Shown: piece by piece, positions 10,574-13,017 of the stretch
Position numbering within the stretch: the stretch's first letter is position 1
How the letters are laid out: every line of letters begins with the position of its first letter
Source of the DNA: a virus
Lineage: Duplodnaviria; Heunggongvirae; Uroviricota; Caudoviricetes
Direction: 5' to 3' (one strand)
DNA length: 22,980 bases
Virus record (IMG/VR): IMGVR_UViG_2547132417_000017
Made by a program: the position numbers and the translations under genes
Notes under the pieces: model-generated
Told to the model about the DNA's origin: nothing
The model's database searches: none
Seen by the model: only the letters and a program-made list of their open reading frames with translations

Positions 10574-11003
10574 CGCCGTGCCGCAGCTCCGAAACAACCC
10601 CGATATACTGCGCCTTTTTGCCGACAACGGCCATACCGATTCCAGACTGGCGAGCTCGCTGTCGTTTGAAAAGGTGTACGTGCTTAACGTGGTGGTGACC
10701 GACTTCACCGGTGACCTTGATTTGATATTCGTGCCGGTGCAGGCGTGGCTGCGTGAACATCAGCCGGACATTATGACCACCGACGACGGGCGGGAAAAAG
10801 GATTCACCTGGATTATTGATATCAATAACGACGATTCGCTCGATATCAGTATCAGCCTGAGGCTCACCGAGCGCACGCTCGTCAAAGAGGTCGACGGCGC
10901 GCTGCATGTCAGCTATGCCCCTGAGCCGCCGCTGCCTGAGCCGGTGACGCGCCCGGTCGAGCTGTACGTTAACGGCGAACTGGTGAGTAAGTGGGATGAG
11001 TGA
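10527..11003 (+). CDS. R: Tail completion protein R (P2 gpR-like)
   Basis: 158 aa at the R position of the P2 order. Confidence 0.87.
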   Translation: MNSMQKHKSLRKALINAVPQLRNNPDILRLFADNGHTDSRLASSLSFEKVYVLNVVVTDFTGDLDLIFVPVQAWLREHQPDIMTTDDGREKGFTWIIDINNDDSLDISISLRLTERTLVKEVDGALHVSYAPEPPLPEPVTRPVELYVNGELVSKWDE

Positions 11004-11445
11004 GTTAACCGCACTGCAGGAACGCCTTGCCGGTCTGATTGCCAGCCTGTCACCGGCGGCGCGTCGGCAAATGGCGGCTGAGATTGCGAAAAAGCTGCGT
11101 ACCAGTCAGCAACAGCGTATCAAGCGCCAGCAGGCACCAGACGGCACCCCGTATGCGGCACGAAAGCGCCAGCCGGTGAGGAGCAAGAAAGGTCGGATTA
11201 AACGTGAAATGTTCGCCAAACTGCGCACCAGTCGCTTTATGAAAGCCAAAGGCAGCGACAGTGCGGCGGTGGTGGAGTTTACCGGAAAGGTGCAGCGCAT
11301 GGCGCGGGTGCATCAGTACGGCCTAAAAGATCGGCCAAACCGAAACCGCCGGGATGTGCAGTACGAGGCGCGCCCGTTGCTCGGTTTCACTTGGAATGAT
11401 GAGCAGGCAATTGAAGATATTATTATCAGCCATTTAAATAAATAA
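10996..11445 (+). CDS. S: Tail completion/virion morphogenesis protein S (P2 gpS-like)
   Basis: 149 aa; overlaps the end of R. Confidence 0.9.
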   Translation: MSELTALQERLAGLIASLSPAARRQMAAEIAKKLRTSQQQRIKRQQAPDGTPYAARKRQPVRSKKGRIKREMFAKLRTSRFMKAKGSDSAAVVEFTGKVQRMARVHQYGLKDRPNRNRRDVQYEARPLLGFTWNDEQAIEDIIISHLNK

Positions 11446-11464
11446 TTACTATGTGAGTCATTAC

Positions 11465-11492
11465 AGGAACTGTCAGAGTTGGTGCAGTTCCT
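11465..11492. terminator. 8-bp hairpin between convergent S and the reverse-strand cargo gene
   Basis: AGGAACTG (11465-11472), 12-nt loop, CAGTTCCT (11485-11492), followed by an AT-rich stretch. Confidence 0.35.
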
Positions 11493-11519
11493 ATATTTAG
11501 GTATTAAGTTTGTTTTAGA

Positions 11520-12305
11520 TTATAAAGTTAAGTTTATCCCCAGCTCTTTTTTTGCAATATCTAATACATATTCGGAATTACTCCAAGAACCATTGGTGTC
11601 TCCACAACACTCAGGGCTCAGGCATATGGTCAAGCAGGCTATTTTATTCTTATCAATGCCCGCCCTTACTGTTTTAAATAACTCCTTAATGAACGCGTCA
11701 TCAATAAATTTAAGATAATGTTCACCTGTGAAGAAGTAGTCAAGATCAATATTGATGATGATTTTTTCATGGTTATCAATGGCGCTATCTAAATTCTCAA
11801 GAAGCTCATAAGGCTCAATGTCTCTGAAGCAATGATTAAAAGGATTCTGCGGGTATGTGCCATCATTGTGTGTTGCTAGATAAATACACTCAATATGGTT
11901 TTGAAGTGCATCATCTGAAATAAAAAAGGATAGATAATTATCCCACCGTATCAGTGGTGTTTTATTACCACCGACTGTTACCTCTAGACTTAAGTAGTCT
12001 AGATAGGATTTTAAATTGAACACCCCCGGAAATTTACTTATATAGGGTTCGTATAGGTTGAGAGTATCATAATGCCTATCAATATGAAATAATGCGATAT
12101 TTTTATCAGGCTGTAAGTGTTGCATCCAGCACCATAGTGCGATTCTATGATTGTCACTAATGTATATATTACCATCCTGAGCAAGGAAGTTTAAATTATA
12201 TGCCAATGATGGGCCTTTTTGGGTTGGCGGAATTAACAACTTCATAAGAACTCCATATAAAATATGTTTTCCCAGCAATGCTAACGCAAGAGCAATGCTT
12301 TTCAT
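11520..12305 (-). CDS. AT-rich cargo gene of unknown function between S and V; possible metal-dependent hydrolase fold
   Basis: Full ORF is 261 aa. A better-supported start is the second ATG at 12245 (GGAG 5 nt upstream, 241 aa); the first ATG at 12305 has only a distant AGGGA. Contains H-I-D-R-H-Y-D and I-D-L-D-Y-F motifs reminiscent of arginase/deacetylase-type metal sites. Opposite strand to the late operon and much more AT-rich by eye than its neighbours. Confidence 0.6.
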   Translation of the reverse strand: MKSIALALALLGKHILYGVLMKLLIPPTQKGPSLAYNLNFLAQDGNIYISDNHRIALWCWMQHLQPDKNIALFHIDRHYDTLNLYEPYISKFPGVFNLKSYLDYLSLEVTVGGNKTPLIRWDNYLSFFISDDALQNHIECIYLATHNDGTYPQNPFNHCFRDIEPYELLENLDSAIDNHEKIIINIDLDYFFTGEHYLKFIDDAFIKELFKTVRAGIDKNKIACLTICLSPECCGDTNGSWSNSEYVLDIAKKELGINLTL

Positions 12306-12375
12306 AGCGTTGTGCCATCCCTGAAAGAAAATATCTGATTAGCAAATATTCCACCCAAAATTCAAAATAGTCCCT

Positions 12376-13017
12376 ATGAACACTCTGAACAGCATACAAG
12401 AATTAGCGCGCGCGATTCGCAACCTCATCCGCTCAGGTGTGGTGACTGAGGTCGATATCGTGCAGGGGCTGTGCCGCGTACAAAGCGGTGGGATCCAGAC
12501 TACATGGCTGAACTGGCTGACTACCCGAGCTGGACGCTCGCGCACATGGTGGGCTCCCTCGGTCGGTGAGCAGGTGCTGCTGCTGGCAATTGGTGGCGAG
12601 CTTGATACTGCTTTCGTGCTGCCGGGGATTTTCTCCGACGATAACCCCGCCCCATCTGCCTCGGCGGATGCATGGCATGTGGTTTTCCCTGATGGTGCGG
12701 TCATTGAGTACGAGCCCAAGACCAGCGCGCTGACGGTCAGCGGCATCAAGACTGCTGATGTGACGGCATCGCGATCCATCACGGCTACCGTGCCGTTGGT
12801 ACTTGTGAAAGCAGAAACCCGCATAACCCTCGATACCCCGGAGGTGGTTTGTACCAACAAGCTGACGACAGCAACGCTTGAGGTACAAAAGGGCGGCAAG
12901 ATGAAAGGCAACATCGAACATTCCGGCGGGAAATTAACCTCTAACGGTGTGCAGGTTGATGACCATGACCACGGCAATGTGCAGAGCGGTGGAAGTTGGA
13001 CTAAGGGGGTTAAATGA
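12376..13017 (+). CDS. V: Baseplate spike protein V (P2 gpV-like)
   Basis: 213 aa starting MNTLNSIQELARAIRNLIRSG, close to P2 gpV. Confidence 0.92.
   Translation: MNTLNSIQELARAIRNLIRSGVVTEVDIVQGLCRVQSGGIQTTWLNWLTTRAGRSRTWWAPSVGEQVLLLAIGGELDTAFVLPGIFSDDNPAPSASADAWHVVFPDGAVIEYEPKTSALTVSGIKTADVTASRSITATVPLVLVKAETRITLDTPEVVCTNKLTTATLEVQKGGKMKGNIEHSGGKLTSNGVQVDDHDHGNVQSGGSWTKGVK

Follow-up and report, generated by a model that had tools for sequence, protein, structure and literature searches.

A reverse-strand UPF0489 gene with a predicted two-metal arginase fold in the S/V cargo slot of a 186/PSP3-like P2-family prophage

The stretch of DNA considered here (the window) comprises 22,980 nt of a Caudoviricetes virus (IMG/VR record IMGVR_UViG_2547132417_000017) and carries, between the tail-completion gene S and the baseplate-spike gene V, a single gene on the opposite strand. 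The open reading frame (ORF) list of the window gives this gene as an ATG-initiated ORF of 261 aa at 11520..12305 (-). A first-pass annotation made from the letters alone had described it as an AT-rich reverse-strand insert, and the base composition bears this out: across 11400-12400 the GC fraction is 0.31-0.38 in 200-nt windows, with 0.52-0.63 on both sides, and the coding sequence (CDS) contains 35.8% GC against 55-57% in the flanking genes S, V, W, and R. At about 20 percentage points of GC below its flanks, the cargo gene is foreign, having been horizontally acquired. Within the P2 family, the window itself is of the 186/PSP3-like type. Its S/V flanks match 186, PSP3, SEN1, and a set of Yersinia phages at 87-89%, and over positions 2715-22969 the window shares 96.3% identity with an Escherichia coli A38 prophage that is integrated beside rplS. 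In this near-identical prophage, the S homologue is annotated as "phage virion morphogenesis protein".

The product of the cargo gene belongs to the UPF0489 family, as had been surmised from its motifs. The protein matches Pfam PF12640 (UPF0489, renamed FlmR_OhkR_N) with 33.8 bits, above the gathering cut-off of 27 (E 5.6e-8), and a precomputed match to the same family accompanies 119 of the 120 listed homologues, the exception being a 151-aa partial sequence. The two metal-hydrolase-like motifs picked out earlier, HIDRH and IDLDYF, are both found in the 261-aa translation, within FHIDRHYD (residues 73-80) and NIDLDYFF (residues 185-192). Searching 5.8 billion proteins retrieved 497 relatives, nearly all of them 236-250 aa long, and an exhaustive profile search returned 880 clusters at 50% identity. 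Given that these are only 880 among 1.84 billion representatives, the clade is rare. Domain fusions were sought among the 880 clusters; long members are few, and their N-terminal extensions have no Pfam match.

A profile search against Protein Data Bank (PDB) sequences ranked the peptide arginase OspR (8brp) first, with an E value of 5.5e-6. The alignment pairs YvMDNHRaAlWCW with YIMEEHNEAFFIW, HiDrHyD with HVDEHSD, and niDLDYF with DIDIDYF. In OspR, a binuclear Mn cluster is coordinated by H12, D39, H41, D43, D165, and D167 (PMC10028609). The corresponding residues of the window protein (H53, D76, H78, D80, D187, and D189) are invariant in a conservation alignment of 51 members with identities down to 35%, as are D51, N52, R54, W58-C59-W60, H74, N123, F191, T226, P231, W241, and E245. 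The protein thus has a complete predicted binuclear metal site, H53/D76/H78/D80/D187/D189, in which the metal is probably Mn2+. An AlphaFold2 (AF2) model and its fold matches display the three-layer α/β/α arginase fold, with OspR, an uncharacterized arginase-superfamily protein from Trypanosoma cruzi, agmatinase, guanidine hydrolase, metformin hydrolase, and formiminoglutamase as structural neighbors. The first-pass annotation had proposed an arginase/deacetylase fold; fold searching and the OspR alignment uphold the two-metal arginase part of that proposal and not the one-zinc deacetylase part. Among viral sequences, a BFVD fold search returned only a giant-virus arginase and histone deacetylases, PHROGs contained only phrog_32422 (a family of unknown function that is essentially the same protein), and tblastn against 50,697 phage records, P2 included, gave no match.

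Orthologues with 65-86% identity were located in the same slot and orientation in prophages of Citrobacter, Klebsiella oxytoca, Enterobacter, and a second E. coli lineage, such that six enterobacterial alleles from four genera occupy the S/V slot. The distance from the orthologue start to the V start is exactly 130 nt. All orthologues are intact and AT-rich (31-38% GC). The ratio of nonsynonymous to synonymous substitution rates (dN/dS) is 0.30 relative to the closest (86%) orthologue and lies below 0.1 where synonymous change is unsaturated; the gene is under purifying selection. The cargo was found in one of 5426 complete E. coli genomes, and the exact protein occurs on >100 draft contigs. 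As a side observation, the cargo region (window 11400-12400) is 99.7% identical to A38, compared with 96.3% for the surrounding backbone, which may reflect a recent exchange of the cassette between related prophages.

Translation most likely starts at M21 of the listed ORF, yielding a 241-aa protein. Forty-nine of the 51 aligned homologues begin at this position, and the enterobacterial orthologues are annotated at 239-243 aa. The arrangement GGAGT-N4-ATG ahead of M21 is kept in all orthologues examined (7/7), while M1 is preceded only by a distant AGGGA. The upstream extension M1-L20 (MKSIALALALLGKHILYGVL) is hydrophobic and in frame in the window, but its frame is broken in orthologues: a 1-nt indel puts the ATG out of frame in one (L003), two (L009 and L106) have a stop 8 codons upstream, and two lack the upstream ATG (L006 and L009). 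The AF2 model has a predicted local distance difference test (pLDDT) score of 62-71 for residues 1-20, compared with 92.9 for the model as a whole. Both the 261-aa and the 241-aa versions have been annotated, with PGAP calling 261 aa in A38. The first-pass annotation had reasoned that, should translation begin at the upstream ATG, the first 20 residues could form a signal peptide and mark a secreted lysogenic-conversion factor. That idea fails because the hydrophobic extension is not conserved, and the window protein is predicted to be cytoplasmic.

Since the DNA of the M1-L20 stretch is conserved in orthologues where the frame through it is broken, the stretch is most likely a 5′ leader or regulatory DNA rather than coding sequence. 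A direct-repeat search located within it two copies of the near-palindromic 9-mer AGCAATGCT, spaced 17 nt apart, and nucleotide similarity persists across this repeat stretch in orthologous prophages that could not translate it. The pair may serve the cargo gene as an operator or promoter element. A consensus promoter scan of the minus strand upstream of M1 and of M21 found no σ70-like site.

The position of the gene relative to the late operons required revision. The first-pass annotation had viewed a late operon as interrupted by the insert, but the annotated P2 record shows an operon boundary at this place, with the order S (which closes the O late operon), a rho-independent O-operon terminator, Orf30 on the reverse strand, the pV activator-binding site, and the start of the V operon. 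By this layout, the cargo lies at the boundary between two late operons and not within one, which accounts for the tolerance of the site to cargo. The hairpin that had been reported on the 3′ side of the gene was recovered by an inverted-repeat search as a conserved structure 25 nt past the cargo stop codon, with a minus-strand folding energy of -15.3 kcal/mol (z = -3.4 versus shuffled sequences). Its CAGGAAC/GTTCCTG stem is kept in orthologous prophages and occupies the same position as the intergenic hairpin of 186 and PSP3, and the O-operon terminator of P2 is annotated at the equivalent place. A consensus terminator scan did not score the hairpin at 11462-11495 as an intrinsic terminator. 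It probably terminates one or both of the convergent transcripts arriving from the S side and the cargo side.

On the V side, a TTGT (window 12310-12313) precedes the V start codon by 65-66 nt in the window, all orthologous prophages, 186, PSP3, P2, and prophages with other cargo (compared in the window and in L002, L003, L006, L009, L098, L099, L101-L103, L106, and L112, the last being P2). In P2, this motif falls inside the annotated activator site of pV. Its conservation sets the right-hand limit of the cassette at about 12305-12310. A scan for late-promoter activator sites with the pattern TGT-N12-ACA gave 3 matches versus 4.7 expected, none of them upstream of V. A 2201-nt query comprising the cargo and its flanks spans only ~1335 nt in 186/PSP3-type phages, so the window contains ~0.87 kb of extra DNA. 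As a separate observation, V has no visible Shine-Dalgarno sequence ahead of it, and transcription of the V operon begins, according to the P2 record, at the V start codon; together these suggest a leaderless or near-leaderless V mRNA. Coordinates of all features are collected in Table 1.

Table 1. Features of the S/V region of the window, followed by further S/V-slot cargos from 186-like prophages of E. coli (coordinates prefixed by locus)
Feature	Position	Strand	Basis
gpS / 186 gpO homologue (tail completion, virion morphogenesis)	10996..11445	+	Matches S of 186, PSP3, and Yersinia phages
Hairpin, 11-bp stem (11462-11472/11485-11495), 12-nt loop	11462..11495	.	Inverted-repeat search; lies between S stop (11445) and cargo stop
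AT-rich inserted cassette, about 0.8-0.87 kb	11500..12305	.	GC profile and junction alignments; not in 186, PSP3, and many relatives
Cargo CDS from conserved start M21 (most likely start), 241-aa UPF0489/arginase-fold protein	11520..12245	-	Pfam PF12640, homologue starts, AF2, dN/dS
I-D-L-D-Y-F, residues 186-191, second Asp pair (D187, D189)	11733..11750	-	Aligns with OspR D165, D167
H-I-D-R-H-Y-D, residues 74-80, DxHxD motif (D76, H78, D80)	12066..12086	-	Aligns with OspR D39, H41, D43
Codon of His53, predicted first metal ligand, motif D-N-H-R	12147..12149	-	Invariant; aligns with OspR His12
In-frame upstream extension M1-L20, hydrophobic	12246..12305	-	Frame broken in orthologues
Shine-Dalgarno GGAG, 5 nt upstream of M21 ATG	12251..12254	-	Read from sequence
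Two copies of near-palindromic 9-mer AGCAATGCT, 17 nt apart	12274-12282 and 12291-12299	.	Direct-repeat search
Probable activator (Ogr/B-type) binding site of V-operon late promoter	12307..12334	+	Positional comparison; same position annotated as pV activator site in P2
gpV (baseplate spike), first gene of V late operon	12376..13017	+	ORF; annotated in A38 and phage records; operon start per P2 record
Pentapeptide-repeat protein ("YjcF") as slot cargo	L100:1527-2363; L002:2643-3479	reverse	
HIT-family protein and 160-aa partner as slot cargo	L101:2952-4071	reverse	
Pair of hypothetical proteins, 140 and 170 aa, as slot cargo	L102:1417-2351	reverse	

The S/V junction is the exchangeable slot known from P2 orf30, as the first-pass annotation had suggested: Orf30 is likewise encoded on the reverse strand between S and V, and S-V junctions elsewhere are either empty or filled with other genes. 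Examination of the S/V pair in 70 complete E. coli genomes found the slot empty (~66 nt) in 30 and an S-V gap of >900 nt in the remaining 40; it is also empty in 186 and PSP3. Every other occupant sampled in E. coli 186-like prophages is on the reverse strand, and a PADLOC search of these cargos (the pentapeptide-repeat protein, the HIT pair, and the two hypothetical proteins) gave no match. The orf30 site has been listed as one of three places where P2 takes up foreign genes (PMC3091744; PMC6823313). The latter publication describes ORF30 as "261-bp-long", whereas the P2 record (NC_001895 9439-10224) gives 786 nt and 261 aa, the same length and orientation as the long cargo ORF. Homology was considered because both proteins are exactly 261 aa and encoded on the reverse strand. 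The best BLASTP match between the window protein and P2 Orf30 (NP_046770) had an E value of 0.29 over 18 residues, disposing of the possibility, raised beforehand, that the gene is a conserved orf30 homologue. P2 Orf30 is an unrelated, strongly hydrophobic, apparently multi-pass membrane protein, and the equal length appears to be a coincidence.

A second variable region of the window, the cos-proximal (gpA-gpQ) hotspot at positions 1-2714, is wholly unlike its A38 counterpart and contains three ORFs. The first, at 478-711, is DinI-like. The second, at 1252-2043, is AT-rich and encodes a Cys/His-rich protein of 263 aa with no Pfam match and weak PtuB-like PADLOC matches (E 2e-4). The third, at 2374-2658, encodes a 94-aa DUF2188/PDC-S16-like protein. 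Recent hotspot surveys have centered on the cos-proximal and Z/fun loci.

More distant relatives of the cargo gene occur in varied genomic settings. A conserved partner gene was sought in 80 genome loci from many phyla, representing 46 different contexts, and none was found; synteny is confined to individual lineages. Since the CDS fills the insert and no neighbor is conserved across the 80 loci, the gene is a single-gene module. In Morganella, the UPF0489 gene lies among BREX-like, Gabija-like, and type VI secretion system (T6SS) effector genes. This Morganella morganii island (L013:1-12720) surrounds the gene with a BrxC/PglY-like gene, a DEAD helicase, IS110/IS3 elements, and a DUF4145 gene, and also contains a PAAR-Tae4-TsiV set (T6SS effector/immunity), a resolvase, and a Gabija-like pair of OLD-TOPRIM and UvrD genes. 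A Bradyrhizobium relative adjoins SIR2-HerA on an integrative element. In a Bacteroidetes-type lineage of metagenome-assembled genomes (L107:5290-8738; also L108 and L109/L021), a 38%-identical relative is located at the end of a non-P2 prophage, beside a lysozyme gene. Four genes of this lineage are co-directional and closely spaced in L107, in the order ThsB-like TIR protein, caspase-like peptidase C14, 333-aa protein of unknown function, and UPF0489, and the cluster may constitute a multigene defense operon. Further relatives reside near Mom/PolB/LexA-like/ISL3 genes or KfrA/Xre genes. A survey of 150 neighbors from about 40 contexts included integrases, PDC-S01, QatA, PD-Lambda-2_B, AbiEi/Eii, a CBASS cyclase with its 4TM effector, methyltransferases, a pPIWI-associated nuclease, and ArdA.

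Taken as a whole, we read the locus as a horizontally acquired single-gene cargo encoding a cytoplasmic two-metal arginase-fold enzyme that would be expressed in the lysogen, and we assign this model a probability of roughly 0.6; a part in conflict between genetic elements is its most speculative component and is weighed separately below. The cassette would be a "moron" occupying the orf30 slot, flanked by the O-operon terminator on one side and the V late promoter's activator site on the other, a placement that would leave tail-gene expression undisturbed. Transcription would proceed from a promoter of its own, independently of the late operons and hence in the lysogen, by analogy with other P2 morons. 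The genes old, tin, and fun of P2 are lysogen-expressed morons. Two metal ions would activate a water or hydroxide, and the metal-bridged hydroxide would then attack the carbon of a guanidino-type group, or that of a related amidino or amide group, with release of urea or an equivalent; the analogy is to the well-established ureohydrolase mechanism, as summarized for OspR (PMC10028609). The substrate could be an arginine within a peptide or protein, as for peptide arginases, or a small molecule. In the most speculative step, modification or depletion of the target would protect the lysogen against other phages.

For the biological role considered by itself, a part in conflict between mobile elements, in defense of the lysogen, is the reading we favor, tentatively and at odds well below even, because members turn up, in several independent lineages, within prophage cargo, on integrative elements, and in defense islands. 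The more specific proposal of a single-gene immune or inter-element conflict effector employing arginase chemistry is possible but no stronger. Such an effector might, for example, turn Arg residues of a phage or host protein into ornithine; alternatively, it might eliminate a guanidino- or amidino-bearing metabolite or nucleic-acid modification on which an invading phage depends. A metabolic role is less likely than a conflict role. In this doubtful alternative, the cargo would be a metabolic moron: a ureohydrolase whose substrate is a small molecule (agmatine, guanidine, a guanidino acid, or something similar) and that brings a nutritional or detoxification benefit unrelated to phages. The structural neighbors other than OspR and the T. 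cruzi protein are indeed small-molecule enzymes, the gene stands alone without a partner, and relatives are syntenic with metH, metF, and an aldose-epimerase-like gene in Bacteriovoracaceae or reside in a housekeeping context in Maridesulfovibrio. Yet the closest solved relative by sequence is a peptide arginase, no transporter or catabolic partner is conserved nearby, and the family is rare and patchily distributed on mobile elements, as its 880 clusters and single occurrence among the complete E. coli genomes attest. Unlikely, too, is a counter-defense or otherwise prophage-serving enzyme that alters a molecule or residue used by host immunity or by a competitor, to the benefit of the P2-like phage. 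Anti-defense genes also cluster in phage accessory regions, the anti-restriction gene ArdA is among the neighbors of one relative, and the cargo is kept in one slot across four genera; however, it is opposed to the late operons and far from the early region, an arrangement resembling that of lysogen-expressed P2 morons rather than of early anti-defense genes, its relatives in chromosomal defense islands fit defense better, and none was detected in the 50,697 phage records.

Three other accounts are far less probable. A peptide arginase of the OspR/FlmR/OhkR type, acting in the biosynthesis of a RiPP (a peptide that is ribosomally synthesized and modified post-translationally) by converting Arg to Orn in a dedicated precursor, would agree with the shared Pfam family, with OspR as the best PDB sequence match, and with the name "peptide arginase family protein" that NCBI gives to one orthologue. 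It is made very unlikely by the NCBIfam peptide-arginase model NF052474, which scores 13.8 bits versus a cut-off of 350, by the replacement of EEH(N/H)EAF with an invariant DNHR..(L)W, by the 72 residues past D189, which leave no space for a dimerization domain, and by an insert of one gene with no precursor, no other maturase, and no conserved neighbor. Secretion from a start at M1, with the first 20 residues as a signal peptide, is about as improbable. Besides the in-frame hydrophobic stretch and its PGAP annotation, one homologue (P0012, 57% identical) likewise carries a hydrophobic extension; against these stand the homologue starts, the GGAG before M21 in every orthologue, the broken frames and missing ATGs, the low model confidence for these residues, and the lack of an A-x-A cleavage site at a plausible distance, as read from the sequence. 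A decaying remnant without function is scarcely credible. The rarity of the gene in complete genomes, its AT-rich and possibly silenced state, and the empty promoter scan could be taken as signs of decay, but the ORF is intact, the catalytic residues do not vary even among alleles of only 35% identity, dN/dS does not exceed 0.30, the Shine-Dalgarno sequence is conserved, and the exact protein recurs on the >100 contigs.

Several observations count against the model that we prefer, that of a lysogen-expressed conflict enzyme. Expression in the lysogen is assumed by analogy, from gene orientation and from P2 old, tin, and fun, as no promoter reached the consensus threshold. The PF12640 match is limited to model positions 1-39 of 167, corresponding to the N-terminal motif. 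The proposed guanidinium holder of OspR, Glu11, corresponds to an invariant Asn in this clade, followed by an invariant Arg, and the substrate may for that reason not be arginine. A PADLOC-DB 2.0 scan of the window protein returned no family at E <= 1. Conserved housekeeping neighborhoods account for 29 of the 80 loci (19 Bacteriovoracaceae, syntenic beside metH, metF, and the aldose-epimerase-like gene, and 10 Maridesulfovibrio, which share a chromosomal context), and for these a general metabolic enzyme fits better than an immune gene. The link to defense is drawn from individual contexts, listed case by case. In the literature library searched, we found no paper linking arginase-fold or UPF0489 proteins with phage defense and no experiment on any member of the clade.

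The well-studied P2 cargo loci, old/tin and Z/fun, have given many new antiphage systems, while the S/V slot has been noted merely as a site of foreign genes; every S/V cargo found here is uncharacterized and without a PADLOC match. An enzyme with an intact predicted metal site, kept across four enterobacterial genera and found beside defense genes elsewhere, is therefore a cheap and concrete candidate for a conflict enzyme. Were this role correct, the protein would be the first ureohydrolase-fold effector of prokaryotic immunity, and the S/V (orf30) slot of P2-like phages would become a third reservoir of defense genes. The protein would also offer a small, tractable bacterial model for UPF0489, the family of human C5orf22. 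Should it prove to be a plain metabolic hydrolase, the result would be useful yet ordinary.

Comparison with known systems clarifies what is shared and what is distinct. At the level of the locus, P2 presents the same succession of S, terminator, reverse-strand AT-rich gene, pV activator site, and V, with the cargo in the same slot and orientation. The difference is that old, tin, and fun have an exclusion phenotype, whereas none is known for any cargo of the S/V slot. At the level of the protein, the nearest known system is OspR (8brp; also FlmR/OhkR and BipC), with which the window protein has in common PF12640, the arginase-type α/β/α fold, the alignment of all six Mn ligands, and the DxHxD and (I/L)D(I/L)DYF motifs. 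The DxHxD and LDIDLDYFSC-type motifs of RiPP peptide arginases are present as HIDRHYD and NIDLDYFF, but identity to OspR is only ~15% over 171 aligned residues. The first active-site motif of peptide arginases is EEH(N/H)EAF, in which the Glu adjoins the His ligand (PMC10028609); the window clade instead has an invariant D51-N52-H53-R54, followed by A56..W58-C59-W60. OspR comprises ~305 aa and includes a 65-residue dimerization domain (residues 170-234) that shapes its peptide-binding cleft (PMC10028609), while the ~241-aa window protein has no room for such a domain, with just 72 residues after D189, and has an extra conserved N-terminal segment of ~25 residues relative to OspR. RiPP peptide arginases adjoin a precursor peptide and maturases, whereas the window gene is standalone and carried by prophages and genomic islands. 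Because the first motif, the dimerization domain, the NCBIfam cut-off, and the gene context all fail to match, the protein, although it belongs to PF12640 and to the arginase superfamily, falls outside the characterized RiPP peptide-arginase group.

Conventional ureohydrolases (arginase, agmatinase, guanidine hydrolase, and formiminoglutamase) are more remote, with 8-16% identity and a TM-score of ~0.44. Their GGDHS and SxDxDxxDP motifs are replaced in the window protein, which is ~50 residues shorter, and the prophage provides no metabolic gene context. Human C5orf22, itself a UPF0489 protein, belongs to the same Pfam family and is uncharacterized, having been proposed as an atypical peptide arginase on motif grounds only; it is eukaryotic, without a mobile-element context, and is likened to the window protein via the family rather than by direct comparison. 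Set beside these systems, the cargo gene encodes a distinct, uncharacterized variant of a known enzyme family, housed in a known but neglected cargo slot.

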